DNA of 64,000 nucleotides, taken from assembly GCA_964636275.1 (NCBI GenBank), contig CAZWRN010000001.1:107724-171723 (forward strand). The letters run 5' to 3'. Positions 7,469 to 60,684 of this stretch are shown here, one piece after another. Source of the DNA: an uncultured Gammaproteobacteria bacterium. GTDB taxonomy: Bacteria > Patescibacteriota > Microgenomatia > Daviesbacterales > UBA10151. The notes under the pieces were generated by a model that searched no databases, had not been told where the DNA came from, and saw only the letters and a list, made by a program, of their open reading frames with translations. Numbering within the stretch: position 1 is the stretch's first letter; the number at the start of each line of letters is the position of its first letter. The translations under genes were made by a program, and so were the position numbers.

Positions 7469-7840
7469 ATGAAAACAAAATACTTACTATTATCTGTAGT
7501 AATTCTCATGGTTATTTTAGCGGGATGGTATATAGTGAAAGAGAAAAGTACAGAAGAGATAAGCAATAAAGATGTTGTTCCTAGCGCAGTAACTGTTGTA
7601 CCAGAGGGTAATTTTAGTTATGAATGCCAAGCTGGGAAAAGTCCTTTTGATGTTTTAGATGAAAAAGCTGAGGTTGAGTATGACGAAAGTTCGTTTGGTA
7701 AATTGGTTACTTCCATAGGTGGAAAGTCACAGGGAGATGGGAAGTATTGGTTGTATTCAATTGATGATAAAGAAGCGACCATGGGAGCATCTGCTTATAT
7801 ATGTAATGGAAGTGAAGAGATTAAATGGGAATTGAAGTAA
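7469..7840 (+). CDS. hypothetical exported protein
   Basis: N-terminal TM/signal segment; no recognisable catalytic motif. Confidence 0.4.
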   Translation: MKTKYLLLSVVILMVILAGWYIVKEKSTEEISNKDVVPSAVTVVPEGNFSYECQAGKSPFDVLDEKAEVEYDESSFGKLVTSIGGKSQGDGKYWLYSIDDKEATMGASAYICNGSEEIKWELK

Positions 7841-7880
7841 TTAGTAAGTAGTCGGTAGGTTGTAGTAAGTAGGTATAGGT

Positions 7881-11444: not shown

Positions 11445-11539
11445 GTTCGTGTTAGAATGCAGAATATAGTATATAGAATGCAGTTGGTGATTAATGTTTT
11501 TGCTATATTCTAAACTCAATATTCTATATTCTTTTACGT

Positions 11540-17473: not shown

Positions 17474-17569
17474 GTTAGTAAGTAGGCTTTAGTAAGTAGT
17501 TTGTAGGTAAGGATAAACCGAATTCTAAACTAGATACAAAATACCAGATACTATATACTTTTTTATACT

Positions 17570-24541: not shown

Positions 24542-26461
24542 ATGGCTAAGATTATAGGAATAGATTTAGGTACAACAAATAGTGCGATGGCGGTGATGGA
24601 GGGTGGTAAACCCAAAGTTATCCATTCTGCAGAAGGCGCAAATACGATTCCTTCTGTGGTAAACCCGGTTAAAAGTGTGGTGGGTACTCCAGCCAAAAGA
24701 CAAGCGATTGTCAATCCAAAAGAGACAATCTTCTCCGTTAAGCGTCTGATGGGTCGAAAGCTGGATGATCCAGAAGTTCAGCGAGATCTGAAATGGCTGC
24801 CTTATGAAGTCAAAGCCGGTAAAAACGGTATGGCTGTAGTGTCTGTAGATGGTAAAGAATATACTCCACAAGAGATTTCAGCGATGGTGCTAAGTAAGAT
24901 CAAAGCTGATGCTGAGGCTTATTTGGGAGACAAAGTTACGGAAGCTGTCATTACCGTTCCTGCATACTTTGATGACTCCCAAAGACAGGCTACCAAGCAG
25001 GCAGGTGAGATTGCGGGGCTTAATGTTCAAAGGATCATCAATGAACCAACTGCTGCTGCATTGGCTTATGGTTTGGATAAACAAAACGCTCATACTATTG
25101 CTGTGTATGATCTTGGGGGCGGTACTTTTGATGTATCTATCCTTGAGCTGGGCGATGGTGTATTTGAAGTAAAGTCAACCAATGGTGACACTCACTTGGG
25201 TGGTGACGATTTCGATCAAGTGATTATTGACTATATTGCTGAAGAATTTAAGAAAGAGAGTGGTGTAGATCTCAAAAATGATAAACAAGCTTTGCAAAGA
25301 CTCAAAGATGCAGCTGAAAAAGCGAAAATCGAGCTGTCTTCTTCTCAGGAAACAGATATTTCTATCCCATTTGTGACAGCTGATGCTACCGGTCCTAAAC
25401 ATATCGATATGAAGCTGTCTCGAGCCAAGCTGGAAGCTTTGGTTCAGGGACTGATTGATAAATCATTTGATGCGGTTAAAGCGGCTTTAGCTGATGCCAA
25501 AATTGATGCCTCCAAAGTCGATGAAGTGGTGTTGGTTGGGGGTATGACCAGAATGCCAGCCGTACAAGCAGCAGTGGAGAAATTCTTTGGTAAAGAGCCA
25601 CATAAAGGTATTAATCCTGATGAAGTGGTAGCTATCGGTGCTGCAATTCAGGGAGGTGTCTTGGGGGGTGAAGTCAAAGATGTATTGCTGCTCGATGTGA
25701 CCCCTCTGACTTTGGGGATTGAAACACTGGGGGCTGTAAGTACACCGTTGATCCCTCGCAACAGTACTATTCCAACTTCAAAATCTGAAACTTTCTCGAC
25801 CGCGGCTGACAATCAGACCTCAGTGGAGATCAATGTGCTCCAAGGTGAAAGACAGATGGCAGCTGACAACAAATCTTTGGGTCGCTTTATGCTGGATGGT
25901 ATTCCACCAGCCCCTCGAGGAACTCCTCAGGTTGAAGTGACTTTTGATATCGATGCTTCCGGAATTTTGCATGTATCAGCCAAAGAGAAAACTACTGGTA
26001 AAGAGCAAAAAATCACTATTACCGGATCAACTGGTCTTGATAAAGATGAAGTTGAGCGAATGACCAAAGAAGCGGAAGCTCATGCTGAAGAAGATAAAAA
26101 GAAAAAAGAGGAGATTGAGACCCGAAATACGGCTGAACAGATCGTCTATACAGCTGAAAAAAGCCTGAAAGATGCTGAAGGTAAGATCGGTGATGATCTG
26201 AAAAAAGAAGTTGAAGAGAAGATTCAAGCAGTTAAAGATGCCAAAGAAGGTCCAATTGATGAATTAAAAGCCAAAGCAGATGCACTAGGTGAAAGTATGC
26301 AAAAAATCGGTGCTGAGATGTATAAAAACCAGCAACCAGCTGACAGTCAACAGTCTACAGCTGAAACAGGATCCGAAGAGCCAAAAACTGAATCCAATGA
26401 TGTTAAAGACGAAGCAGTTGAAGGCGAAGTAGTGGAAGAAGAGAAGAAAAAGGAAGAATAA
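24542..26461 (+). CDS. dnaK: chaperone DnaK (Hsp70)
   Basis: '[10 protein letters not shown]', 'DLGGGTFD', '[10 protein letters not shown]' Hsp70 signatures; acidic EEKKKEE C-terminus. Confidence 0.95.
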
Positions 26462-31875: not shown

Positions 31876-31964
31876 AAGAAAGGAAAAAGAAAGTATAAAG
31901 TACAAATTATAAAGGATAAAACCAGTTTTATAATTTATCGTTTATACTTCATAATTTAAATACT

Positions 31965-33441: not shown

Positions 33442-33480
33442 TTATTAGGGAATAGAGATTAGTAATTAGGGATTAGTTAG

Positions 33481-33894
33481 ATGGAAGAGCAGAGATTTGA
33501 GAGTTATAAAAAATTAATAGTTTGGCAGAAATCAATCTATTTAGTTGAGCTTATTTATGGTTTAACTAGTGATTTTCCTAAAAACGAATTGTTTGGTTTA
33601 ATTTCTCAAATAAAAAGGTGTTCAATTTCGATACCATCAAATATTGCTGAAGGTTTTGGAAGAAGATCACAAAAAGAATATTTGCAGTTTTATTCTATTG
33701 CTTATGGTTCAGCTTTGGAATTGGAAACACAAATTTTAATTGCTAAGAAGCTTGGCTTTGGAAGTTTAAATAGTTACCAAAAGATTGAAAATTTACTAAC
33801 TGAAATAATAAAAATTTTATACGTTATGATTTATAAGAATAACAGTGGTTTTAAAGTGACAAGTATCAAAACTAATTACTATGGAAATATCTAG
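33481..33894 (+). CDS. four-helix-bundle protein (TIGR02436-like; '23S rRNA intervening sequence protein' family)
   Basis: 'LIVWQKSIYLVELIYGLTSDFPKNELFGLISQIKRCSISIPSNIAEGFGRRSQKEYLQFYSIAYGSALELETQ' matches this family. Confidence 0.7.
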   Translation: MEEQRFESYKKLIVWQKSIYLVELIYGLTSDFPKNELFGLISQIKRCSISIPSNIAEGFGRRSQKEYLQFYSIAYGSALELETQILIAKKLGFGSLNSYQKIENLLTEIIKILYVMIYKNNSGFKVTSIKTNYYGNI

Positions 33895-35332
33895 ACCACC
33901 AATTGTTACTATTTTAGGCCATGTTGATCATGGAAAGACCACTTTACTGGATTATATCCGGAAAGCTTCAGTTGCTGCCAAAGAGCATGGAGGTATTACC
34001 CAGGCTATCGGTGCTTACCAGGTGACTCACGATGGCAAATTAATCACTTTTATTGATACTCCCGGGCATGCTGCCTTTGAAAAAATGCGGTCTCGGGGTG
34101 CTCAGGTAGCAGATATAGCTGTTTTGGTCGTGGCTATTGATGATGGAATTATGCCTCAGACAGTGGAGGCTATCAAACATATCAAAAAAGCCGGTGTAGC
34201 GATGGTTGTAGCTGTGAATAAGATCGATATTCCGGGAATCAATAAAGTTGCCCAAATGGAAAAGCTGAAAAAGCAGCTGTCAGATCATGAGGTTTTGATC
34301 GAAGAATACGGCGGAGATGTGCCGATCGTCCAACTTTCAGCTAAAAGTGGCGAAGGAGTAGACAAACTATTAGAGATTATTCAGCTGGTATCTGAAGTAA
34401 ATGAGTTTAAAGGTGATCCTACTTTGCCTGCAACTGGGGTAGTGATTGAATCCAATATTGATAAGTTTAAAGGGCCTATCGCTACAGTAATCATTCGCAA
34501 TGGTACTTTAAAGAAAAATCAGACCGTTAAAATTGCTGGAGCAAGCAGTAAGATTCGGACTTTAGTAAATTATCTGGGTAAGCAGCTGGACGAAGCTGGG
34601 CCGTCAACTCCGGTTGAGATTTTAGGTTTGGAGGTTGTTCCTCCAGTTGGAGGAGTGATGGGTGATGAATCAGCTGCTATGGAGGCTAAACAAGGTCAAA
34701 TTCAGTCACTATTGGAGAAATTAAAATCCAAAGATAAGGCAGTTCTGAATGTTGTGGTCAAAGCTGATAAACAGGGCTCTTTGGAAGCTATTGAAGGGGC
34801 TCTGGAGGCTTTTAATGATGAACGGGAAGTGGTGAAAGTGATTGATAAAGCGACTGGTGATATTACTGACAAGGATATCAGTCTGGCTGCTTCTACCGGT
34901 GCTATTGTGATTGGTTTTGGAGTTAAAGTGGTGCCAAGTGCCAATAAAATTGCTGAAGTAGAGGGGGTTTTGGTCAGGACTTATACAATTATTTATGAAT
35001 TGATTGAAGAGCTAGAAGATGTTGTCGAAGGAATGCTCAAAGTGGGGGCTTTGGAAGAGATCTTTGGTACAGCACAAATTATTGCTGAATTCCCATTTGG
35101 AAAGACGGAGAAAATTGCTGGATGTAAGGTATTGGACGGTCAGATCACAAAAGGGCCTAAAGTTAAAGTAGTACGTGGTGAGGAGGTCATCGGTGAAGGC
35201 AAAATCAAATCTTTGAAAAAAGTTCGTGACGAGGTCACCAGAGTCGAAAAAGGCGATGAATGCGGCATAATGTTTGATTCACCCATTGAGTTTCTCCCAG
35301 GAGATCTGATTCAATCATTTAGAACACTTTAA
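33881..35332 (+). CDS. infB: translation initiation factor IF-2 (minimal, G-domain onward)
   Basis: Starts directly at G1 motif 'RPPIVTILGHVDHGKTTLLD', 'DTPGHAAF', 'NKID'; IF-2 domains II-IV follow. Only 483 aa. Confidence 0.9.
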   Translation: MEISRPPIVTILGHVDHGKTTLLDYIRKASVAAKEHGGITQAIGAYQVTHDGKLITFIDTPGHAAFEKMRSRGAQVADIAVLVVAIDDGIMPQTVEAIKHIKKAGVAMVVAVNKIDIPGINKVAQMEKLKKQLSDHEVLIEEYGGDVPIVQLSAKSGEGVDKLLEIIQLVSEVNEFKGDPTLPATGVVIESNIDKFKGPIATVIIRNGTLKKNQTVKIAGASSKIRTLVNYLGKQLDEAGPSTPVEILGLEVVPPVGGVMGDESAAMEAKQGQIQSLLEKLKSKDKAVLNVVVKADKQGSLEAIEGALEAFNDEREVVKVIDKATGDITDKDISLAASTGAIVIGFGVKVVPSANKIAEVEGVLVRTYTIIYELIEELEDVVEGMLKVGALEEIFGTAQIIAEFPFGKTEKIAGCKVLDGQITKGPKVKVVRGEEVIGEGKIKSLKKVRDEVTRVEKGDECGIMFDSPIEFLPGDLIQSFRTL

Positions 35333-35459: not shown

Positions 35460-37142
35460 ATGGCTGATTATTCAAACCTTTTAGGTGATTTTCCCTCTAA
35501 ACTTGCTTCAAGTAAGCGTATTTTGCTGGCTCTTTCCAAAGATTTGAGCGTAGATTCGTTGGGTTCAGCATTAGCAATGGCTTTAGCTTTGCAAAAGGCT
35601 GGTAAGACGGTATCAGTGGTGAGTGAAGGGACTCCATTGGTCTCACATTCTAATTTATTTGGAATTGGTGAGGTGAAAAATAGTGTCCCTACTTCTGGTG
35701 AAGGTAACTTTGTAATAAAACTGGATGGGGTAGTAGACCCCTCAGGTCAGATGAATACTGTGCCAGCTTTGGAAAAACTTGATTGGAACCCAGAGGGATC
35801 AGCTTTAAACTTAGTTTTCCATGTTGTACCAGGCCAGAGATTTGAGCCGACAAATGTGTCTTATGGCCATGAAACAAGTGGTTTTGACCTGATTATTACA
35901 ATCGATGCTGATTCTTTGGACGAATTAGGCCAGATTTATCTGAAAAATGCTGCACTTTTTAGTAAATCGACGATTGTAAATATTGACAATGAAGCTTCAA
36001 ATAGCCAGTTTGGCAATATCAATATCGTTGATCCGCAGGCTTCCTCTTTGTCTGAAATGACTGTTCATATCCTCAAGCAACTCAATCTTGAGATGGATCA
36101 AGATATCGCTTCCAACCTAGTTGCTGGTATCTATGCTGCAACCCACAATTTGACTCAGCGAGTGAGTCCGGATACTTTCGCGGCCGTTGCTACTGCAATG
36201 CAGTCGGGTGGTAAATTGCCAGAAGGGGGAGTTGTTAGTCAGCAACCAGCTGTCAGCAATCAGCCTTCAGCAAACTCAGCTCCGCAGGAACCTGCAGTAG
36301 AAGCCCAACCAATTGTTCAGGCCCCGATTGCTCAGGAAATCAATCAGATTCAGTTTAATAACCTGCCTTCAGCTGTCAGCGATCAGCCTTCAGCAACTCC
36401 AGCTCCGCAGGTTGTAGAGCCACCAGTAGCTGTTGCTCCTCAGCCAGCTATAAATCCAGAGCCAGTTCAAACACCTGTTCAGCCAGCTGTAGAAGCTCCG
36501 GCAAATGATCTGTATAGTAATCCTTTCCTAAACCCAGGTGGTCAGTCTTTTGGTGCTCCATTAAATCAGCCTCCAGCTGTCAGCGATCAGCCATCAGCAA
36601 CTCCAGCTCCGCAGGTACCAGCTGCTGCATCAGCGAGTGATCCGTTTGGGGCTCCAGCTAGTGGACCAACTTTCAATTTTGGTTCATTTGGAGATAGTCA
36701 GCTATCAGCTGTCAGCAATCAGCCTTCAGCAAACTCAGCTCCGCAGGTGCCAGTAGCTGCTCAACCAGTTCCTGTTCAGGAAGAAAAAGTCGATGTTAGT
36801 GGTCTTTTAAATACTATTCAGCAGGCCAATAAACCAGATAGTGCCTATGATTTAAAACAGATATTTAATGTTGAACAGATGCCAGAAACTCCAGTGGTAG
36901 GAAATACGACGCATGATTCAGCAGTGGTTCAGCCATCAGCTGTCAGCGATCAGCCATCAGCCATCCCAACTCCGCAGACTCCAGTAGATCAAACACAACC
37001 TGTTCAGGATAGTAAACCAGAGTCTTCACCGGAAGAAAAACCAGCTGGTGAAGCAGTTGATTCAGTAAATACAGAAGCGGAAGCCAATCCAACCCCAGAT
37101 TGGTTAGTCCCCAAAATATTCAAAGGCGGATCTTTAGGATAA
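35460..37142 (+). CDS. DHH-family (NrnA-like) phosphoesterase homolog with degenerate catalytic motifs fused to a Q/P/S-rich repeat tail
   Basis: N-terminal about 240 aa resembles the DHH domain, but motif I is 'DLSVDSLGS' (for H.nPDGD.lGS) and motif III is 'DAD' (for DHH). The C-terminal 300 aa has 5-6 copies of '(Q)PSAVSDQPSA(T/N)(P/S)APQ'. Confidence 0.5.
   Translation: MADYSNLLGDFPSKLASSKRILLALSKDLSVDSLGSALAMALALQKAGKTVSVVSEGTPLVSHSNLFGIGEVKNSVPTSGEGNFVIKLDGVVDPSGQMNTVPALEKLDWNPEGSALNLVFHVVPGQRFEPTNVSYGHETSGFDLIITIDADSLDELGQIYLKNAALFSKSTIVNIDNEASNSQFGNINIVDPQASSLSEMTVHILKQLNLEMDQDIASNLVAGIYAATHNLTQRVSPDTFAAVATAMQSGGKLPEGGVVSQQPAVSNQPSANSAPQEPAVEAQPIVQAPIAQEINQIQFNNLPSAVSDQPSATPAPQVVEPPVAVAPQPAINPEPVQTPVQPAVEAPANDLYSNPFLNPGGQSFGAPLNQPPAVSDQPSATPAPQVPAAASASDPFGAPASGPTFNFGSFGDSQLSAVSNQPSANSAPQVPVAAQPVPVQEEKVDVSGLLNTIQQANKPDSAYDLKQIFNVEQMPETPVVGNTTHDSAVVQPSAVSDQPSAIPTPQTPVDQTQPVQDSKPESSPEEKPAGEAVDSVNTEAEANPTPDWLVPKIFKGGSLG
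36238..36990 (+). repeat. intragenic dispersed 45-nt repeat CAGCTGTCAGCGATCAGCC(A/T)TCAGCAACTCCAGCTCCGCAGG (5 copies), encoding 'AVSDQPSATPAPQ'
   Basis: Copies at about 36250, 36366, 36576, 36708 and 36940 inside the DHH-like gene; related copies at 41935 (Lon-like gene) and 43275 (rnj). Confidence 0.7.
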
Positions 37143-37254
37143 TCTCCGCTTAATCTATAAGCTTGCAACTTTTTTCAAGATCTGTTAGAATTTGAAAGTT
37201 CGATTGGAATTACTTCTTGGTATCGAAGTTTTTCCGTAACTAAACATAAAACTG

Positions 37255-37320
37255 AATTAACAGAAAAGAAAGGAGATACCACCTAGTCACTAGACTCTAG
37301 CGACTAGTCACTAATTAGAA
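37255..37320 (+). promoter_or_regulatory. rpsO 5' leader with nested CTAG-containing palindromes (candidate S15 autoregulatory structure)
   Basis: 'CCTAGTCACTAGACTCTAGCGACTAGTCACTAATTAG' directly before the rpsO ATG, with direct and inverted TAGTCACTA repeats. Confidence 0.35.
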
Positions 37321-37590
37321 ATGCCATTAGATCCAAAAGTAAAACAACAAATAATTGATAAATTCGCTACTCACAAAGGCGATACTGGTTCTCCTGAAGT
37401 GCAGGCTGCACTTTTGACAGAGCAGATCAAAAACCTCACTGACCATTTAAAACAGCACACTCATGACGTTCACTCACGCCGAGGGTTGCTTTCTATGGTT
37501 AACAAACGACGACGACTGTTACAGTATCTTTTGAAGAAAGATCAGGACAGATATCAAGCTGTTATTTCAAAACTAGGCCTCTCTAAATAG
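37321..37590 (+). CDS. rpsO: 30S ribosomal protein S15
   Basis: '[51 protein letters not shown]' S15 signature. Confidence 0.9.
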
Positions 37591-37825
37591 TTTTCATGTC
37601 TCCTGATATACACAATTCACCAAAAGACAGAATTAGACCCCCAGTGGCTGGCCATCTTTTAGAAATCTACTCAAGGCGGAGTTTTATGGATAAAATCAAT
37701 AGATTGATGTTTCGTTTGGCATTAGCAGCAGCTGTTTATGATACTACAGCGCGAGTGATTGATCCCCGATATTCCCTTAAAACTATGAGTACTCCATTTA
37801 GGAGAAGGTTTTTTCCAAATTCAAG

Positions 37826-38434
37826 ATGAGTTTTCCTATTAAAACTTTTGATAATACAGATTTTATTGCCCCTTCTTGGGAGGAAATGGGGGATGTCAAT
37901 TTTGAACTGATTAAAAAAGTTCGAGAATCAGGTAAAAAATATGACCGGGTCATCGCCCTATCTAAAGGAGGGTTAACCTGGGCACGGGCTTTTGTTGATG
38001 GTTTAGCGATGGATGAACTGAGTAGTTTGCGAATAAAGCTGTATAAAGGTATTGGTGAGAAAGCAGTGGAACCGGAAATCGTCGAGCCTTTGACGTTAGA
38101 TATCTCCGGTCAAACAGTTTTGCTCTTTGATGATGTGGTTGATACCGGGGAAACCTATGAATTTGCTAAAAAGTTGTTGGCTGAAAAGTATGGAGCCAAG
38201 CAGGTCGATACTGCAGCTTTATTTTACAAACCTCATTCAGTGATTACTCCCGACTTTTTTGTCGGAGAAACGACTGCCTGGATTGTCTTCCCTCATGAAA
38301 TACATGAATTTGTGGTTGAAACAGGGAAGAAATGGTTAAAACAAGGACTGACTGAGGGAAATATTTTAAATAGGTACAAAGAATTAGATTTGCCTTATGA
38401 ACAAGTCCACTATTATTTAAGTGAACTCAGTTAG
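37826..38434 (+). CDS. type I phosphoribosyltransferase-family protein
   Basis: PRPP-binding motif 'VLLFDDVVDTGETYEFA'. Confidence 0.65.
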   Translation: MSFPIKTFDNTDFIAPSWEEMGDVNFELIKKVRESGKKYDRVIALSKGGLTWARAFVDGLAMDELSSLRIKLYKGIGEKAVEPEIVEPLTLDISGQTVLLFDDVVDTGETYEFAKKLLAEKYGAKQVDTAALFYKPHSVITPDFFVGETTAWIVFPHEIHEFVVETGKKWLKQGLTEGNILNRYKELDLPYEQVHYYLSELS

Positions 38435-38539
38435 ATTCTGGACCACATATTCTTAGAATAATTCTTTGGAATTTTTGTAGCCAGAATGACAAATTTTTTG
38501 AAAATTTGAGCTTGAAAATTGAAAATTACTATCCTGTAG

Positions 38540-38568
38540 TTGCAAAAAGAGGATAGGTGGAGTATAAT
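38540..38568 (+). promoter_or_regulatory. near-consensus sigma-70 promoter for pnp, followed by about 210-nt structured leader
   Basis: TTGCAA, 17 nt, TATAAT. Leader 38575-38783 contains hairpins, e.g. GTTAATCTTTGGTATTAAC. Confidence 0.5.
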
Positions 38569-38783
38569 CGTTTTGTGAGAGTGAGATGGGAGATTGGAAA
38601 TTGCAGTTAATCTTTGGTATTAACTCCAGTTACACAGTTTCTTCATCCCTCTTTGAAAAGACGAGTCTCAATTGGTGGGTAGTATTTAGCAGCTAGTTGC
38701 TCTACAATACTCATACTTAATTATTATCGAGAAGATGCTTAAATAAAGATACTGTACTTCTTGTCACTCGTAGAATTTTAGAA

Positions 38784-41132
38784 ATGCAAAAAGTTATTAC
38801 AAAACAAATTGAAATAAACGGAAAGACTTTGAAACTGGAAACAGGGAAACTTGCTCTGCAAGCAGATGCAGCAGTTTTAGCAACTCAGGGAGAGACAGTT
38901 GTTTTGGCGACCGTTGCAACAAAGCCATTAAAAGAATCAATTGGTTATTTCCCCCTCAGTGTTGAATATGTTGAAAAACATTATGCTTCCGGAAGAATTA
39001 CTCCCCAGAAATTTATCAAAAGAGAAGGTCGTCCATCTGAAAAATCTATCTTGTCTGGTCGAGCAATTGATCGTTCTATCAGACCACTTTTTCCAAAAGA
39101 TTTTGAAAATGAAGTCCAAGTGATCATTACTGTTTTGTCTTATGACTCTATCAATGATCCGGTGATGTTGGCTATGACTGCTGCTTCAGCTGCTTTGTCG
39201 ATCTCGTCAGTACCATGGGCAGGTCCTTTGGCTGGTGTTCGAGTTGGTGAATACGAAGGTGAATTGGTGGTTGATCCAGAGATGTCTCATCTTCCAGACT
39301 TAACTTTGGAAGTTGTAGTAGCTTCATCCAAAGAATTAGTTCCAATGATTGAGGCCAAAGCTAAACAGGCCAAAGATGAGCGAGTATTTGAAGCTTTACA
39401 GCTGGCTCACAGTGCAGCTCAGCCAATCATTGATCTGATCAATGACTTTACTAAAGAAGCTGGTAAAGAGAAACAATCTTATAAATCCAACTTAGATGGT
39501 GTTGATGAAGAGCTTTTGAATACGGTGAAAAAAGATGTTGAAGAGCGCATCACCAAAGCGTTGTTTGATACCGAGCACACCTGGCATGATTCGACCGCTT
39601 CTCAGATCAAAGAAGAGGTTACTACCGAATACGCTGAACAGCTGACATCCAACCAGATCTCAACTGTTTTTGACAAGGTCGCTAAACAGATCATGAGTGA
39701 CACTATTTTGCACAAAGGCAAACGTGTTGATGGCAGAAAGATGGAAGAGATCCGCGAGATCACAATGGAAGTTGGTTTGCTTCCACGGGCTCATGGATCA
39801 GCTTTGTTCCAAAGAGGTGCTTCACAGTCTCTGTCTATTGCCACAGTTGGTCCACTTTCAGTGTCACAAACTTTGGAAGGTATGGAAGGCGAAGGCAAAA
39901 AGAGATTTATGCATTATTACAATATGAGTATCAATCCTTTTGCTTCAGGTGAAGTAAAAAGATTGGGTTCTCCAAACAGACGTGATATTGGTCATGGCAA
40001 TTTAGGTGAGATCTCTTTAGTTGGTGTACTTCCTTCAGAACAAGAGTTTCCTTATGCTATCCGAGTAGTTTCTGAGATTTTGGGAGCCAATGCTTCCACT
40101 TCACAGGCAGCTATTAGCGGTTCTACTTTGGCTATGTTAAATGCTGGTATTCCTATTGAACCAGTTGCAGGTATTGCTTTGGGTCTGATCACTGATCACA
40201 GCGATGATAAAAAATTCCAGGTGATCACCGACATGCAGGCAACTGAAGATTTTTATGGTGAGATGGATTTTAAAGTAGCTGGTACTGTCAATGGTATTAC
40301 AGGTATTCAGATGGATACCAAGCTGCATGGTCTGACCTTTGACATTATAAAAGAAGCTTTGCGACAGGGTAAACAGGCTCGTGAAGCAATATTGGCTAAA
40401 ATGCGGGAAGTGATGCCTCAGGCCAATGAACTGTCTAAATACGCTCCCAAGATTGAAATTACTCATATTCAGCCAGATCAGATCGGTATGTTGATTGGGC
40501 CAGGTGGTAAAAATATCAACGGTATTATTGCTGAGACCGGTGCTCAGATCGATATTGAAGATGATGGTACTGTGATGGTTTCTTCGATGGATAGTGTTGC
40601 AATCCAGGCTGCTTTGGACAAGATTACAGGTATGTTTAAAAAAGTGATGCCTGATGAAGAGTATGAAGGTAAAGTAGTTCGAATTGAACCATTTGGTGCA
40701 TTTGTCGAGATTTTGCCTGGTAAAGATGGATTGGTACATGTGTCTCAGATGGCTCCTGAACGAGTTGAAAGACCAGAAGATGTAGTTGAACTAGGTCAGG
40801 TTGTAAAGGTGAGAGTGGTCGATGTAGATAATATGGGTAAGATCTCTCTTTCAATGCTTTTTGGAGCTGATCGAAAGCCAGAATCTGAAAGACGCCCAAG
40901 TGGTGGAGACCGAGGTGGACGGGGAGGTTTTGGAGGCGATCGTGGAGGCAGTCGAGGTGGTTTTGGTGGTGGAAGTGACAGAGGCGGACGCGGCGGAGAT
41001 CGCGGTGGCTTTGGAGGTGGATCCAGATCTGGTGGCGGTATGAGACGTGGTTTTGGTGGTGGAAGTGACAGAGGCGGACGCGGCGGAGATCGCGGTAGCC
41101 GAGGTGGCAATCGAGGCGGATTTAGTAGATAA
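38784..41132 (+). CDS. pnp: polyribonucleotide nucleotidyltransferase (PNPase) with C-terminal RGG/GGDRGG repeat tail
   Basis: Two RNase PH domains, KH, S1 ('GKVVRIEPFGAFVEIL'); about 85-aa 'GGDRGGRGGFGG' tail encoded by a 44-nt tandem duplication (40962-41005 and 41047-41090). Confidence 0.95.
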   Translation: MQKVITKQIEINGKTLKLETGKLALQADAAVLATQGETVVLATVATKPLKESIGYFPLSVEYVEKHYASGRITPQKFIKREGRPSEKSILSGRAIDRSIRPLFPKDFENEVQVIITVLSYDSINDPVMLAMTAASAALSISSVPWAGPLAGVRVGEYEGELVVDPEMSHLPDLTLEVVVASSKELVPMIEAKAKQAKDERVFEALQLAHSAAQPIIDLINDFTKEAGKEKQSYKSNLDGVDEELLNTVKKDVEERITKALFDTEHTWHDSTASQIKEEVTTEYAEQLTSNQISTVFDKVAKQIMSDTILHKGKRVDGRKMEEIREITMEVGLLPRAHGSALFQRGASQSLSIATVGPLSVSQTLEGMEGEGKKRFMHYYNMSINPFASGEVKRLGSPNRRDIGHGNLGEISLVGVLPSEQEFPYAIRVVSEILGANASTSQAAISGSTLAMLNAGIPIEPVAGIALGLITDHSDDKKFQVITDMQATEDFYGEMDFKVAGTVNGITGIQMDTKLHGLTFDIIKEALRQGKQAREAILAKMREVMPQANELSKYAPKIEITHIQPDQIGMLIGPGGKNINGIIAETGAQIDIEDDGTVMVSSMDSVAIQAALDKITGMFKKVMPDEEYEGKVVRIEPFGAFVEILPGKDGLVHVSQMAPERVERPEDVVELGQVVKVRVVDVDNMGKISLSMLFGADRKPESERRPSGGDRGGRGGFGGDRGGSRGGFGGGSDRGGRGGDRGGFGGGSRSGGGMRRGFGGGSDRGGRGGDRGSRGGNRGGFSR

Positions 41133-41139
41133 TTGAGAC

Positions 41140-41817
41140 GTGCAAAAATTCAGACAGCTTTTTTTCCATAAAACTTTTCAACTTTTAATTATATTGGTGG
41201 TTCTGACTAGTATTTTAGTACTGACTACTATTTTGAGACCCGATGTTTTTCAAGAGATGTTTAGTAAAATAAATGTTTTTGCTTCAGATATTGCTTCTGG
41301 TAAATTGTGGAAAGAAAAAAGCCAAGCCAGGGTATATTTAGCGGATGGATCTTTGAAAGTAAACTTTCAGATTAGTACAGTCGATCAGTCAGCGGTAAAA
41401 GCCTTCAATCAAAAATTGGGAGTTTCAGATGAATATTTACAGGGAGTAGCGATTAAAATCGATAGTGAATCGCAGCAAAAACTGCAATCATTTTTACCTG
41501 TCAATTTAACCTTGGAAATTGAAGATGATCGGATTATCTTCCAAAATGGCATAATTGCTGGGTTTGCTTCATCACTAGTGACAAAAACAATGGAGTATGC
41601 AACTGGTTCGTCAAAGCTGAAAATTTCCCATTACTCACCGACCGAGTTCTTGCTTGATATCACAGATCCAGAGCCATTATTGCAGGAAGCAACAGCCTCG
41701 GGAAAGTTTGTTTTATCGGATAAACTATTACCGCTCTATCCAATATTAGAGAGAGTGAGTACAATAGAAATGAGTGTAAATGGTAAAAGTGTTAGTGGAG
41801 AAGTGAAGTTGAAATAA
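41140..41817 (+). CDS. hypothetical N-anchored protein
   Basis: N-terminal TM; 4-nt gap after pnp suggests co-transcription. Confidence 0.4.
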   Translation: MQKFRQLFFHKTFQLLIILVVLTSILVLTTILRPDVFQEMFSKINVFASDIASGKLWKEKSQARVYLADGSLKVNFQISTVDQSAVKAFNQKLGVSDEYLQGVAIKIDSESQQKLQSFLPVNLTLEIEDDRIIFQNGIIAGFASSLVTKTMEYATGSSKLKISHYSPTEFLLDITDPEPLLQEATASGKFVLSDKLLPLYPILERVSTIEMSVNGKSVSGEVKLK

Positions 41818-41858
41818 TGTCAAATACTACCAATGTCAAATGACAAATGCCCAATCAT

Positions 41859-41886
41859 TAGACATTAGACATTAGACATTAGACAT
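41859..41886. repeat. (TAGACAT)x4 heptanucleotide tandem repeat upstream of the Lon-like ATPase gene
   Basis: Four perfect units, 10 nt before ATG 41897; a candidate slipped-strand (phase-variable) promoter/leader spacer. Confidence 0.7.
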
Positions 41887-41896
41887 TTAATACATT

Positions 41897-43054
41897 ATGG
41901 ATAATTCTGCCCAAAATAATCAGCAACAACAGCCATCAGCCGTCAGCGATCAGCTATCAGCCAACCAAGCTCAGCAAGGTCCGATTTCTACAGCAGTGGT
42001 CGATAAACTAGTTACCTCACAAAATCCCAGTCAGATTGTGGATAAACTGAAGGCTAAAGTGGCGGCAGCGCAGTTGCCTGCTGATGTTTTGGAAAAAATC
42101 CAAGATGAGGTGAGTCGGATTGAGCTGGTATTTGCCAGAAAAGAGTTTAATCCCGAGCTGGACCGGCAGATCAAATATATTGATTTTATTTGTGAATTAC
42201 CATGGAATAAAGTCGGCCAAGACAATCTGGATTTAAATCATGCCAAACAGATTTTGGAAAAAAATCATCACGGTCTAGAACCCTTAAAAGCTCGGATTTT
42301 GGAATATCTGTCGATTTTGATCTTAAATAAGCAGAAAGGTTTGACACCAAAGCAGCCGGTATTGGCTTTTGTGGGGTTAGCGGGGTCCGGAAAAACGACG
42401 ATCGCTTTTTCGATAGCCGAAGCTTTGGGAAGACCGATCATTCGTATTCCATTTGGTGGTCTTGGTTCAGCACTTCAGTTGCGTGGTGAATCCCGGGTGA
42501 AGTCTGAAGCTGAGCCGGGGATGATCGCGAAAGCGATGAAAAAAGCTCAGGTGAAAAATCCGGTTATCTTGATCGATGAGATCGATCGTGTGACCGATTC
42601 AGCCAGGACGGATATAATGGGGGTTTTAATTGAGCTTTTGGATCCAGAGCAGAATATGGCTTTTACCGATCATTATGTCGGTTTCCCTTTCGATCTGTCA
42701 CAAGTATTATTTGTCGCTACCGCCAATAACACTGGCAATGTGGCTACAGCGGTACTAGATCGTCTGGAACTCATAGAGATGCCTTTTTATACTGATGAAC
42801 AAAAAGTGGTGATTGGTAGAGATTATCTGCTGCCGCAGGCCTTAAAAAATGCCGGTTTGGATCCACAAACGGTCCAGATCAGCAATGAGATGTGGAGCCA
42901 GATTGTGCGTCCACTGGGGTTTGATGGCGGAATTCGTTCTTTAAAGCGCAATATTACCAATATGACTGGGAAAATTGCCCGGATGGTAGTCGAAGGAAAC
43001 AAGGGACCGTTTGTAATAAATGAACAGAACTTAGCCCAGTATTTGAATATATAG
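41897..43054 (+). CDS. Lon-like AAA+ ATPase module without LON N-domain or protease domain; Q-rich N-terminal extension
   Basis: Aligns with the Lon ATPase segment: 'YIDFICELPWN', 'HHGLEPLKARILEYL', Walker A 'GLAGSGKTT', Walker B 'VILIDEIDRV', sensor-2 'GIRSLKR'. Ends 'NLAQYLNI*' where Lon continues into the protease domain. Confidence 0.75.
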   Translation: MDNSAQNNQQQQPSAVSDQLSANQAQQGPISTAVVDKLVTSQNPSQIVDKLKAKVAAAQLPADVLEKIQDEVSRIELVFARKEFNPELDRQIKYIDFICELPWNKVGQDNLDLNHAKQILEKNHHGLEPLKARILEYLSILILNKQKGLTPKQPVLAFVGLAGSGKTTIAFSIAEALGRPIIRIPFGGLGSALQLRGESRVKSEAEPGMIAKAMKKAQVKNPVILIDEIDRVTDSARTDIMGVLIELLDPEQNMAFTDHYVGFPFDLSQVLFVATANNTGNVATAVLDRLELIEMPFYTDEQKVVIGRDYLLPQALKNAGLDPQTVQISNEMWSQIVRPLGFDGGIRSLKRNITNMTGKIARMVVEGNKGPFVINEQNLAQYLNI

Positions 43055-43055
43055 A

Positions 43056-43146
43056 GATTAGGAAGTAAGATACAATAACCAAGAAACAAGTTATCCAATT
43101 AAGGAATATAGTTTAACTATTTGCATCTTGATTATTGTTTTCTTGG
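43056..43146. repeat. palindromic intergenic element, copy 5' of rnj
   Basis: Left arm GATTAGGAAGTAAGATACAATAACCAAGAAACAAG; right arm TTTGCATCTTGATTATTGTTTTCTTGG. Confidence 0.6.
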
Positions 43147-43157
43147 AAGACTTATTT

Positions 43158-44996
43158 ATGAAATCATTTAAACCACAACAACAGACTAATACGCAAAACG
43201 TAACACGCAATACGAGTACTCAAAAACCAACCATATACCATAATCCGCAGCCAGCGGGGGGAAATACTGTGCAGCAATCAGCTATCGGCTCTCAGCCATC
43301 AGCAAAAAACAGTAATCAGAATCAGCAGAAGAATCAACCAATGGGTGATACAGTGCGACTGATTCCATTGGGTGGTGTAGGCGATGTGACTAAAAACATG
43401 TATGTATATGAGTATAAAAATGACATCGTCATCGTCGACTGTGGTGTATCTTTTCCGGAAGAGAGTATGCCGGGGGTCGATTTGGTAATTCCGGATATTA
43501 GTTATTTGCGAGATAAAAAATCTAAAATCCGTGGTATTGTGATCACTCACGGGCACGATGATCATTATGGAGCGTTGCCATATATCTGGCCAGAGCTGGA
43601 TGTGCCCATTTACTCTCAAAAACTGACCTGTGGACTGATTCGTTCTAAATTCAGTGAGCACAAATTGCCAAAAGACAAGATCAAGGAGATGAAAATTACT
43701 GATACTGTTCAGTTGGGCGCCTTTAAAATTTCGGTATATCAGGTTTCTCATTCGGTCCCAGATTCAACAGGAGTGGTTTTGGAGACGCCAGTAGGCACTA
43801 TTATCCATCAGGCTGACTTTAAAATAGATTGGACACCGGTAAATGGACAGGTCCCCGATGTGGGTCGGGTAGCTGAGTTGGGACGAAAAGGGGTACTGAT
43901 GATGACTATTGATTGTCTTCGCAGTGAAAAGCCTGGTTATACTATTTCCGAAAAAACCATTCAGCCAACATTTGAAAAAATTGAAGCTGAGACCAGGGGG
44001 CAGTTGATCATTACCCTGATTACCTCCAATATCACCCGGATTCAGCAGGCTATAAATGTGGCTGTTCAGTCGGGTAGAAAAGTGGCATTTGTCGGTAGAA
44101 GCATGGAAAACAATGTTCAGGTGGCCAGAGATTTGGGCTATCTGCATGTTCCACCTGGAGTAGTGATCAATCAGGAAGAGGTTAGGCGATTTGCCCCAGA
44201 AAAACTAATGATTATTATTGCGGGTTCTTTGGGTCAGCCAGGTTCAGCCTTATCGCGGGCTGCTCATGGTGATCACAAAAATATTCGAATTAGTCCCACT
44301 GATACAGTTGTTTTTAGTGCCGATCCGATGCCGTCAGCTGAAATGTCTCAGGGGATGATAATTGATGCTTTAGCCAGAATTGGTTGTAAAGTGTATTATT
44401 CACGATTAACCGAAGATTTGCATGTTTCAGGTCACGCAGCCCAGGAAGAGTTGAAGCTGATGATCAATCTGGCTAAACCAAAAAACCTGATGCCTATGGG
44501 TGGTAATTTCCGTCACATGAGGGCATTTTCCGATATGGTCAAAGAGATGGGGTATAAAGACAACCAGATCTTTGCGTTAAAAGAGGTACAGGCAATTGAG
44601 ATCGGTCGTGATAAAGCCCGAATCGGTGAAAGAATCCGGGAAGAAAATGTCTATGTGGATGGGTTAGGGGTTGGAGATGTAGGGCAAATTATTTTGCGAG
44701 ACAGGCAGTTGATGAGTGAAGAGGGCGTGGTGGTGGTGATCGCTCGGGTTGATATGAAAACTGGCAAGTTGGAAGGTGAGCCGGATGTGATGTCCCGAGG
44801 ATTTGTCTTTGGTGAAAGTGGTCAGGATATTACTGGTGCTGCTAAAGAGATAGTTAAAAGTATCTTCTCAGGTCTTCATAGCGGACCGACAGATTTTAAA
44901 TATATTCGCCATGAAGTGGAAGACAATTTAGGCAAGTTTTTCTACGAAGAAACCAAACGCAAACCGTTGATTTTGACAACGGTTGTAGAGATTTAA
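43158..44996 (+). CDS. rnj: ribonuclease J with Q/N-rich N-terminal extension
   Basis: Metallo-beta-lactamase 'ITHGHDDHYGALPY', beta-CASP and C-terminal domain. ATG 43158 (MKSFKPQQ) preferred; the upstream TTG lies in an intergenic repeat. Confidence 0.9.
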   Translation: MKSFKPQQQTNTQNVTRNTSTQKPTIYHNPQPAGGNTVQQSAIGSQPSAKNSNQNQQKNQPMGDTVRLIPLGGVGDVTKNMYVYEYKNDIVIVDCGVSFPEESMPGVDLVIPDISYLRDKKSKIRGIVITHGHDDHYGALPYIWPELDVPIYSQKLTCGLIRSKFSEHKLPKDKIKEMKITDTVQLGAFKISVYQVSHSVPDSTGVVLETPVGTIIHQADFKIDWTPVNGQVPDVGRVAELGRKGVLMMTIDCLRSEKPGYTISEKTIQPTFEKIEAETRGQLIITLITSNITRIQQAINVAVQSGRKVAFVGRSMENNVQVARDLGYLHVPPGVVINQEEVRRFAPEKLMIIIAGSLGQPGSALSRAAHGDHKNIRISPTDTVVFSADPMPSAEMSQGMIIDALARIGCKVYYSRLTEDLHVSGHAAQEELKLMINLAKPKNLMPMGGNFRHMRAFSDMVKEMGYKDNQIFALKEVQAIEIGRDKARIGERIREENVYVDGLGVGDVGQIILRDRQLMSEEGVVVVIARVDMKTGKLEGEPDVMSRGFVFGESGQDITGAAKEIVKSIFSGLHSGPTDFKYIRHEVEDNLGKFFYEETKRKPLILTTVVEI

Positions 44997-60030: not shown

Positions 60031-60162
60031 TTAGAATTTCTAAGTACTCTAATTCCTAATATCTAAATAAGATCCAAATCTCAAGACGCTAAATACTTTT
60101 AGGATAATTTAGTTAGAAATTAGAAATTAGAAATTAGAAATTAGAAATTAGAAATTAGAAAT
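60031..60162. repeat. second dispersed intergenic repeat family, copy 2, ending in (TTAGAAA)x7 heptanucleotide tandem repeat (60113-60161)
   Basis: TTAGAATTTCTAAGTACTCTAATTCCTAAT, then seven perfect TTAGAAA units ending 4 nt before the ruvX ATG. Confidence 0.7.
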
Positions 60163-60165
60163 TTT

Positions 60166-60558
60166 ATGAAATATCTTGGTGTTGATTATGGATTAAAAAA
60201 GATTGGTCTAGCGGTATCTGAAGGACAAATTGCTTCACCATTGCGAGTGATTGCTATCTCTAGTCTAAAAGATGGTTTAGAAAAGCTAGCTCATGAGATA
60301 AAAAAAGAAGATATACAAAGAGTTGTCATCGGAATATCTGATGGTAAGATGGGTAAGATAACCCACCAGTTTGCAAATGAGCTAAAAAAAAGATATCAGA
60401 CGACACCAGTAGAGGTGATTGAAACTGATGAAACATTGAGTTCATTCGATGCTCAAGAGTTGATGATTACTCTCGGAACTTCCCAAAAAGATCGACAGGA
60501 AGAGGATGCATATTCGGCGATGTTGATTTTACAGCGGTTTCTTGATAGTTTGAGTTAG
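60166..60558 (+). CDS. ruvX: Holliday-junction resolvase-like RuvX/YqgF
   Basis: 'YLGVDYGLKKIGLAVSEG' YqgF N-terminal signature; RNase H-like fold, 130 aa. Confidence 0.85.
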   Translation: MKYLGVDYGLKKIGLAVSEGQIASPLRVIAISSLKDGLEKLAHEIKKEDIQRVVIGISDGKMGKITHQFANELKKRYQTTPVEVIETDETLSSFDAQELMITLGTSQKDRQEEDAYSAMLILQRFLDSLS

Positions 60559-60684
60559 ACGATAGATGATAGAAAATTGAAGATAGGGGTAGATGATGGA
60601 TTATAGAAAATAAAATTTGATCTATCTGCTATTCTCAATCTTCCACAACTATTTTCTACTATCTATTTACTATTTTCTAGAGTT

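Follow-up and report, generated by a model that had tools for sequence, protein, structure and literature searches.

The 64-kb window examined here (the whole stretch of DNA that was analysed, 64,000 nucleotides of contig CAZWRN010000001.1) comes from a bacterium whose nearest protein homologues belong to Patescibacteria/Microgenomates, close to Daviesbacteria. A DHH-like pseudo-nanoRNase, rpsO, pnp, a Lon-like AAA+ ATPase and rnj are neighbours in it, as a first-pass annotation had proposed and as open reading frames (ORFs) and family searches confirm. A short peptide motif, PSAVSDQPSA, recurs in the DHH-like protein, the Lon-like ATPase and RNase J, and had been read as a docking signal for a degradosome-like complex. 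The present analysis favors another view: the motif is the in-frame read-out of a TCAG(C/T)NN heptanucleotide element, and it is probably a spacer-like by-product of repeat dynamics and not a docking signal. The genes of the cluster that carry the element and the copies found in coding sequence are the following.

26328–26361, plus strand: variant array in the DnaK tail (CCAGCAA CCAGCTG ACAGTCA ACAGTCT ACAGCTG); dnaK occupies 24542–26461.
35460–37142, plus strand: DHH-like pseudo-nanoRNase of 560 amino acids (aa) with a match to Pfam DHH, a predicted folded N-domain (aa 1–255) and a 305-aa tail predicted to be disordered.
36239–36273, plus strand: heptamer array 1 (TCAGCAA CCAGCTG TCAGCAA TCAGCCT TCAGCAA), read QQPAVSNQPSA.
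36362–36396, plus strand: heptamer array 2, read LPSAVSDQPSA.
36566–36600, plus strand: heptamer array 3, read QPPAVSDQPSA.
36698–36732, plus strand: heptamer array 4, read QLSAVSNQPSA; 90% identical to array 1 over 62 nt.
36929–36963, plus strand: heptamer array 5, read QPSAVSDQPSA.
41897–43054, plus strand: Lon-like gene, a LonA-type AAA+ module only (385 aa), without the LAN domain, without the protease domain and with the pore-loop Tyr replaced.
41929–41963, plus strand: Lon N-terminal heptamer array, read QQPSAVSDQLSA; among the six genomes with a complete Lon N-terminus (the window, L124, L126, L127, L121 and L122) it is present in the window only.
43158–44996, plus strand: rnj, encoding RNase J, with the catalytic core from aa 66 and a 65-aa Q/N-rich N-terminal extension.
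43271–43305, plus strand: degenerate TCAGCNN array of RNase J, read QQSAIGSQPSA at residues ~39–50; orthologous arrays are present in L126, L127 and L121.

At the DNA level, PSAVSDQPSA is spelled as four successive TCAGC blocks preceded by CA, TG, GA and CA, and the full element consists of 35 nt, or five TCAGCNN units. Seven sites (36239, 36362, 36566, 36698, 36929, 41929 and 43271) contain exactly five in-phase units each, and Tandem Repeats Finder (TRF) returns a period of 7 there. The TCAGC core is identical at 165 of 175 bases (94%) while unit positions 6 and 7 are variable. Since 7 = 2×3+1, three units cycle through all three frames and yield a peptide with a periodicity of seven residues, S-A-x-S-x-Q-x. 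The residues that differ between copies (P/L/Q, V/I, D/N/S) are exactly those set by the NN bases, and the second Ser is always encoded by AGC, a codon that accounts for 6% of the Ser codons in the genes of the window. Because the reverse complement, GCTGANN, contains TGA, only the TCAGCNN orientation can be coding. The copies within ORFs are all on the sense strand and are located in the disordered tail, the N-terminal extensions and the DnaK tail. A search with a 20-nt pattern, allowing up to two mismatches, produced nine matches, all on the plus strand, versus 0.00 in 100 shuffles.

The first-pass annotation correctly described the motif as a dispersed DNA repeat, but its heptanucleotide structure and the variant copy in DnaK had been missed. 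The tail of the DHH-like protein does contain a repeated motif, though in five copies and not in five to six as had been counted. The copy assigned to the N-terminus of the Lon-like protein is indeed found at 41929, whereas the motif said to open RNase J is a degenerate copy within the N-terminal extension, at residues ~39–50 of 65. A peptide search with concatenated motifs gave 136 word-sharing candidates, of which 0 were scored, composition filters being the probable cause.

Several trivial or specialized origins of the arrays were considered and rejected. Chance or compositional low complexity is ruled out by the shuffles, and an assembly artefact by the recurrence of the arrays in assemblies from three independent sources (NCBI, JGI and Logan). 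Nor do the Lon and RNase J copies belong to an untranslated 5' leader, given that the starts MDN(S/T)AQ and MKSFKP are conserved and that the frame is open in relatives without an internal ATG. A diversity-generating retroelement was considered with a bAvd-like PF05635 gene nearby; no reverse transcriptase is present among the annotated neighbouring genes, the adenine at core position 3 is invariant, and the variable positions are not limited to adenines.

The clearest view of what is conserved was obtained from orthologous arrays in related genomes, which are referred to by their locus labels (L121, L122, L123, L124, L126, L127, L128 and L129). In the conserved RNase J and DHH domains, four-fold degenerate sites of the window are 35–49% identical to those of L126, L127, L121 or L122, and are therefore about saturated. 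In six pairs of orthologous arrays, identity was 88% for the TCAG core, compared to 40% at position 5 and 48% in the spacer. Core bases that fall at third codon positions were kept in 37 of 42 cases (88%, the same as at first and second positions; P ~3e-9 versus an expectation of 44%, for pairs that are not independent of one another). The peptide meanwhile differs, as in SAVSDQPSA, SSVVSHQSSA and SSDVSLQSST. Since the TCAG core is kept even at third codon positions while the peptide changes, it is the periodicity of the DNA (or RNA) that has been retained and not an amino acid motif. A codon-position test of this kind separates a shared peptide motif from the footprint of a DNA repeat and provides a caution for proteome scans.

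When the DNA was compared site by site, arrays at orthologous positions proved fresh in certain genomes and had decayed or been replaced or deleted in the rest. The 90%-identical L123 lacks site 1 and has unrelated sequence there, and L124 and L126 have it; site 5 is confined to the window, L123 and L124. The close match of window sites 1 and 4 over 62 nt is suggestive of recent conversion. The units also have a flavour that differs by genome, with TCAGC(TG)(GA) units in one group (the window, L123 and L124) and TCAGTCG units in another (L126, L127 and L121). The flavour is common to the DHH gene and the rnj array of one genome, and its genome-specific character is indicative of concerted evolution. 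Together, the likeness of arrays 1 and 4, the unrelated sequence at site 1 of L123 and the genome-specific flavour support the earlier suggestion of a dispersed DNA repeat that was spread by recombination.

Individual copies have equally limited distributions. The Lon copy is absent in L124, L126, L127, L121 and L122; these five carry other Q/P/S-rich inserts, shorter or longer, between the MD(N/P/S)AQ start and the QIVDKLKAKV helix, and Daviesbacteria has none. The CATTAGA array upstream of the Lon-like gene, too, is particular to the window. L122, L128 and L129 lack the RNase J copy. The DnaK-tail array is present in the window and L124 and absent from the DnaK of L127, L122, L128 and L129, and approximately the same 30 nt are found at DHH-tail site 2 of L127 and L121.

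The TCAGC arrays are part of a broader excess of heptamers. Depending on whether strict or relaxed settings were used, the window contains 15 or 32 period-7 arrays versus 0–3 for every other period from 3 to 13 and 0.2–1.5 in shuffles; period 14, equal to two units, gave 12, and about 30 of the 63 TRF rows have a period of 7 or 14. Non-coding DNA, which makes up 12.5% of the window, contains 19 of the 32 arrays, and seven of the arrays terminate no more than 15 nt from a start codon. Another 13 are in coding sequence, among them the six detected TCAGC-type arrays (the array at 36239 fell under the threshold of the periodicity scan) and a second array in the RNase J extension. An upstream four-mer resembling a Shine-Dalgarno (SD) sequence is present in only 8 of 59 genes. 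Many of the start-proximal units contain TAG and thus place a stop in all three frames. With respect to RNA secondary structure, the arrays gave no consistent signal (z-scores of -0.2 to -2.4), and a scan of the window for known RNA families and tRNA found none. Close relatives have the period-7 excess as well, with 3–7 arrays per 14–22 kb in L121, L123, L124, L126 and L127; the more distant L122, L128 and L129 have essentially no period-7 arrays, and the peptide motif shows the same phylogenetic limits. The arrays of other unit types beside the Lon-like and rnj genes, and those observed 0–17 nt before start codons, are as follows.

43187–43214, plus strand: second period-7/14 array in the RNase J extension, of the ACGCAAN type.
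41856–41887, plus strand: perfect CATTAGA array of 4.6 units that ends 10 nt before the start codon of the Lon-like gene; L121 has 1–2 units and L126 and L127 have none.
60113–60163: TTAGAAA array, start-proximal, a perfect array of 7.3 units that precedes the ORF at 60166.
7836–7872: AGTAAGT array, start-proximal.
11503–11533: CTATATT array, start-proximal.
17529–17562: ACTAGAT array, start-proximal.
31926–31955: TTTATAA array, start-proximal.
33446–33476: ATTAGGG array, start-proximal.
37283–37313: CTAGTCA array, start-proximal, upstream of rpsO.
60648–60679: CTATTTT array, start-proximal.

Outside the lineage, the 20-nt pattern was found at 120 loci at least, in Acidobacteriota, Planctomycetota, Chloroflexota, Bacteroidota, Nitrospirota, Omnitrophota and others, where by our own estimate roughly 17 matches would be expected at random. 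The narrower DNA pattern TCAGCYGTCAGCRATCAGCYNTCAGC still matched 31 foreign loci. Among the matches listed, 123 of 198 arrays lie outside ORFs of at least 100 aa, and an ORF start within 50 nt downstream was seen in 45 cases for the GCTGANN (forward) orientation versus 12 for the opposite one. The longest foreign arrays have 23 units when only exact matches are counted, and in L032 close to 40 units can be made out by eye. The non-coding arrays of other phyla keep the GCTGA core with a variable dinucleotide, and the translated ones occur in linkers or at the ends of unrelated proteins. In one of these (L010 6383–6788), a 1468-aa ORF from Poribacteria, there are six tandem 36-nt units reading QQDSNQPSA(V/I)SRQ, with a TCAGCNN array of four units as the core of each. 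The idea that the motif is specific to RNA-decay proteins does not hold, as a variant is found in DnaK and the coded peptide recurs in unrelated proteins of other phyla. A generic linker in unrelated proteins is what the first-pass annotation had itself named as evidence that would refute its reading. As a separate observation, long GCTGANN arrays occur as inverted pairs that flank 60–90 bp of unique sequence in a metagenome-assembled genome (MAG) of Terriglobia (L032 4140–4540) and in an Agriterribacter MAG (L077 2748–2895), and the pair in L032 is located just upstream of a gene.

The DHH-like protein deserves attention apart from its arrays. Its sole domain is an N-terminal DHH domain (Pfam match of 31.7 bits) and DHHA1 is absent. 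In an alignment to NrnA and Rv2837c, IDHH is changed to IDNE and one Asp of motif I is lost. An AlphaFold2 model had a predicted local distance difference test (pLDDT) score of 80–93 over much of aa 1–255 and of about 58–64 at residues 61–140, while nearly all of residues 257–560 were at 31–46 and were modelled as disordered. The best Foldseek matches are NrnA-type phosphodiesterases (TM1595, Rv2837c and NrnA; E down to 1e-13). With IDNE for IDHH, no DHHA1 and a low tail pLDDT, the label of a pseudo-nanoRNase with a disordered tail is a fair one. The gene lies downstream of infB, as nrnA/cnpB does in Actinobacteria.

The tail was compared in 19 homologues and is punctuated by invariant or near-invariant islands, namely NDLYSNPFLNP, DPFGAPASGPTFNFG, YDLKQIFNVEQMPE, SSPEExPxGE and a C-terminal PTPDWLVPKIFKGGSLG. 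These islands (36480–37139) are kept down to an overall identity of 43%, and NCBIfam has no family for the protein. The heptamer-coded segments are located in gap-rich spacer columns between the islands. We take the C-terminal peptide to resemble an amphipathic membrane-targeting sequence of the MinD type. A comparison of tails and cores across relatives, as had been recommended, showed that the gene cluster and the RGG tail of PNPase are kept and that, within the DHH tail, conservation is lowest in the columns of the motif. Protein-level selection most likely acts on the gene cluster, the RG-rich tail of PNPase and, in the DHH tail, the aromatic islands and the invariant C-terminal PTPDWLVPKIFKGGSLG. 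A scaffold role of the DHH-like protein is possible and would then rest on features other than the motif. In the window, a 178-bp interval (37143–37320) follows the gene; directly after it in relatives, a 137-aa ORF without a family match is found in L123 (10045–10458), L124 (10697–11110) and L126 (11723–12136), and an ORF of 56–140 aa occupies the same spot in others.

The remaining genes and features of the cluster are listed below. The list of neighbours given in the first-pass annotation stands except for the phosphoribosyltransferase gene, which it left unmentioned.

37321–37590, plus strand: rpsO (S15); the Pfam family Ribosomal_S15 was matched by the orthologues.
37826–38434, plus strand: phosphoribosyltransferase, from a family search.
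38784–41132, plus strand: pnp, encoding PNPase; the family models stop at aa 691 and an R/G-rich tail (~40857–41129) follows.
40942–41009 and 41032–41099, plus strand: the two copies of a 68-nt segment duplicated within the RGG tail, 90% identical with 50 nt exact, at a spacing of 90 nt.
41140–41817, plus strand: conserved hypothetical membrane protein that matches no family and is invariably encoded between pnp and the Lon-like gene.

Across Microgenomates, from the closest relatives to a Daviesbacteria genome, the order hrcA-grpE-dnaK-dnaJ ... nusA-infB-DHH-rpsO-(phosphoribosyltransferase)-pnp-hypothetical-Lon-like-rnj-ftsK is largely kept. RNase J has the metallo-beta-lactamase, beta-CASP and C-terminal domains and scores 547 bits with TIGR00649 (cutoff 400). 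PNPase has two RNase PH domains as well as KH and S1 domains, and its RG-rich tail of ~90 residues, outside the family model, is kept in L121, L122, L124, L126, L127 and L128 and in a weaker form in Daviesbacteria. The RGG-type tail reported earlier is present, though not as the product of a 44-nt tandem duplication; the duplicated segment is the 68-nt one listed. When PNPase C-termini were examined in the best 150 cluster representatives at 50% identity (P0121–P0270), 16 were of the RGG type and 83 were basic; an RG-rich tail is not unusual among PNPases. A literature search on RGG tails of PNPase found no specific paper.

The Lon-like protein matches Bacillus Lon with E = 1e-68, as well as the AAA+ module of Meiothermus Lon, and covers positions 248–568 of the 795 in TIGR00763. 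Walker A (GLAGSGKT) and Walker B (ILIDEID) motifs are present. The pore loop, RRTYVGAMPG in LonA, is SRVKSEAEPG here, and the aromatic residue is absent in all seven orthologues surveyed (the window, L121, L122 and L126–L129). The orthologues follow SRVK(S/T/P)EAEPG, in which Tyr-Val is replaced by Lys-Ser, or by Lys-Thr or Lys-Pro in L128 and L129. Protease and LAN domains are absent throughout and the length is 344–385 aa; since the ATPase has been kept at this length in seven genomes, it is no pseudogene. The conserved hypothetical protein that always precedes the gene is 209–237 aa long.

Upstream of the cluster, two further observations were made. Initiation factor 2 (33881–35332) is only 483 aa long, extending from the G domain to the C-terminus with the N-terminal region absent, and its start overlaps the end of a PF05635 gene (23S rRNA intervening-sequence protein, bAvd-like). 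This PF05635 gene is positioned between nusA and infB, where it is found only in the window (33481–33894) and L123 (6374–6775), and is flanked by heptamer arrays. Of the 120 foreign TCAGCNN-array loci fetched, four have a PF05635-like ORF, which in three of the four is within 100 nt of the array (L018, L073 and L111 were noted). The PF05635 gene family may be associated with heptamer arrays. To our knowledge, no RNA-decay complex has been described in Patescibacteria. The cluster is a reasonable place to seek one, and the features to examine would be the conserved islands and not the repeated motif.

We infer slippage and gene conversion as the mechanisms behind the element, and no function for the peptide. 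Slippage by 7-nt units would create and lengthen arrays, and the perfect arrays point to an active process. Gene conversion or unequal recombination would then copy and homogenise arrays between nearby sites. Within genes, arrays would survive only in the stop-free orientation, given the TGA in GCTGANN, and only where the protein tolerates them, that is, in the disordered Q/S/P-tolerant tails and extensions of the DHH-like protein, Lon, RNase J and DnaK. A number of points weigh against this account. By our own reading of the array sequences, all seven window copies are in one reading frame though three frames are open, and three of the four carrier genes in the window belong to the RNA-decay cluster. 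Arrays have been kept at orthologous sites (DHH sites 1–4 and RNase J) past synonymous saturation. The DNA searched amounts to ~64 kb of the host genome, the window itself, and ~14–22 kb per relative. Neutral slippage and conversion also leave unaccounted for a fixed TCAG core with a drifting spacer, both here and in foreign non-coding arrays, and a constraint or a sequence-specific mechanism acting on the core is implied. A held core and persistent sites, being beyond what slippage and conversion provide, therefore leave room for a nucleic acid-level function with a periodic binder. Such a function might take the form of TCAGYNN arrays acting in cis as mRNA or single-stranded DNA elements, with the 4–5-nt core read every 7 nt by a factor such as an S1, KH or cold-shock-domain protein; the arrays would be kept in RNA-decay genes for regulation and the peptide would be incidental. 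While unlikely overall, this explanation agrees with a core that is conserved regardless of codon position beside a free spacer, with the same core and variable-dinucleotide design in long non-coding foreign arrays, with the enrichment of forward-oriented arrays just upstream of ORF starts, and with window arrays that abut start codons where SD-like motifs are scarce. A translational or RNA-binding role has also been proposed for TAACTGA arrays (PMC4679880). The explanation is weakened by several facts: the binding factor is hypothetical, the intergenic units of the window differ among themselves (TTAGAAA, CATTAGA, CTAGTCA) and offer no single common binding site, upstream arrays turn over fast between close relatives, no consistent RNA structure was detected, and the coding arrays are opposite in orientation to the upstream arrays of other phyla.

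The docking model, in which SAVSDQPSA is a short linear motif that, with the RGG tail of PNPase, drives a multivalent degradosome-like complex or condensate on a DHH-like scaffold, is quite unlikely in light of the comparative data. It would fit the presence of the motif in three proteins of one conserved RNA-processing cluster, the retention of arrays at orthologous positions in the DHH tail and RNase J extension across a genus-level clade, and the single reading frame of all copies. Within a genome, the flavour shifts jointly in the DHH protein and in RNase J, which could be read as co-evolution, and the predicted 300-aa disordered tail on a catalytically dead domain would suit a scaffold. 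Against these points, the Lon copy is missing in five relatives, the peptide varies while the DNA core is kept, third codon positions included, and the DHH copies lie in the least conserved, gap-rich columns of the tail. The chaperone DnaK carries a variant copy, and the same repeat is mostly non-coding in many phyla, where it also encodes the same peptide in unrelated proteins. The motif lacks aromatic or charged "sticker" residues, an argument drawn from the stickers-and-spacers view of condensates. The earlier proposal that the motif is a docking signal for degradosome assembly is not upheld by these comparisons. It is highly improbable that the arrays are contingency (phase-variation) switches, in which one 7-nt unit gained or lost would shift the frame and turn a tail or gene on or off. 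Seven is not a multiple of three, all three array frames are open, and heptamer repeats do serve as phase-variation loci in some pathogens; however, every copy has exactly five units, the units are imperfect, and sites 2, 3 and 5 of the 90%-identical L123 have as many units as those of the window. These facts make a switch unlikely, and the carriers are housekeeping genes with conserved cores or a C-terminal peptide downstream of the arrays.

With the spacer-like by-product still preferred, there is a small but real chance that a function has been overlooked. Either the arrays would be functional through a core-reading factor that acts on 5' leaders and on the coding regions of RNA-decay genes, or the peptide would be a multivalent sticker, specific to the lineage, in a Patescibacteria degradosome of RNase J and PNPase scaffolded by the DHH-like protein. 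In the first case, candidates for the factor would include S1, KH and cold-shock-type proteins, perhaps even PNPase or RNase J, and the persistence of the core in several phyla despite synonymous saturation would be accounted for. For a possible degradosome-like complex built on the DHH-like protein, the support comes from synteny, and the candidates for mediating it would be the aromatic islands and the C-terminal peptide.

The proteins and the repeat may each be compared to known systems. The DHH-like protein is like NrnA and Rv2837c (CnpB) in the fold and sequence of its N-domain, and differs in having DNE in place of the DHH motif, in the loss of one Asp from motif I and in a 300-aa disordered tail where DHHA1 would be expected. 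It shares with RNase E-type degradosome scaffolds and bacterial ribonucleoprotein bodies (BR-bodies) a long disordered region with short conserved islands, encoded beside RNA-decay enzymes, along with an Arg-rich segment in one partner. Unlike in those systems, a DHH pseudo-enzyme would be the scaffold here, and the repeated motif lies outside the conserved islands. In the annotated part of the window, neither RNase E nor RNase Y was found.

As a repeat that is translated, the element may be set beside the Rickettsia palindromic elements, which Ogata et al. in 2000 reportedly found inserted in frame in protein-coding genes and which are said to be palindromes of 100–150 bp. Both are selfish or neutral DNA repeats translated as a shared segment of unrelated proteins at sites that the fold tolerates. 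The element described here differs in that it is a 35-nt heptamer array with no palindrome and no consistent predicted fold. Closer parallels are found among heptanucleotide repeats, of which those of Calothrix are reportedly the STRR sequences, attributed to Mazel 1990.

Arrays of TAACTGA, with TCAGTTA as reverse complement, occur in Beggiatoaceae, Cyanobacteria and Bacteroidetes (MacGregor 2015, PMC4679880). Most of them sit a few nucleotides ahead of start codons where SD motifs are scarce, and they have stops in all forward frames, while reverse-oriented arrays are mostly near the ends of ORFs, where they encode LSVISYQ; insertions were inferred to succeed "primarily at the periphery" (PMC4679880). 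The arrays of the window and its foreign counterparts share with them the 7-nt tandem unit, a TCAG core in the reverse complement, a start-proximal forward orientation in SD-poor contexts and, in reverse orientation at the periphery of ORFs, a peptide with a 7-aa period, LSVISYQ there and SAVSDQP here. In contrast to TAACTGA arrays, the last two to three bases of the unit vary here, the copies are short, with five units, and are scattered within and among housekeeping genes that are conserved, evolution of the copies is concerted, the host belongs to Patescibacteria and the intergenic units differ (TTAGAAA and similar). Heptamers are over-represented among long simple repeats in many bacteria, for which slippage related to the footprint of the polymerase was proposed (Mrazek 2007, as cited in PMC4692102 and PMC4679880). 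The same two papers cite tandem heptanucleotides of Calothrix PCC 7601, and the GGGAATC repeats of Xanthomonas are another known heptamer array that is cited beside them. These long repeats, as represented in the citing papers, resemble the present case in a genome-wide heptamer excess that is mostly intergenic with fast turnover between close relatives, and differ in that the reports as cited concern non-coding arrays while here a subset is in frame in conserved proteins. The element of the window joins this known and still unexplained class of bacterial heptanucleotide repeats. It extends long-known repeats to Patescibacteria and into the reading frames of conserved housekeeping genes, with concerted evolution, and the conserved 4–5-nt core with free spacer bases is a feature that goes beyond plain slippage.

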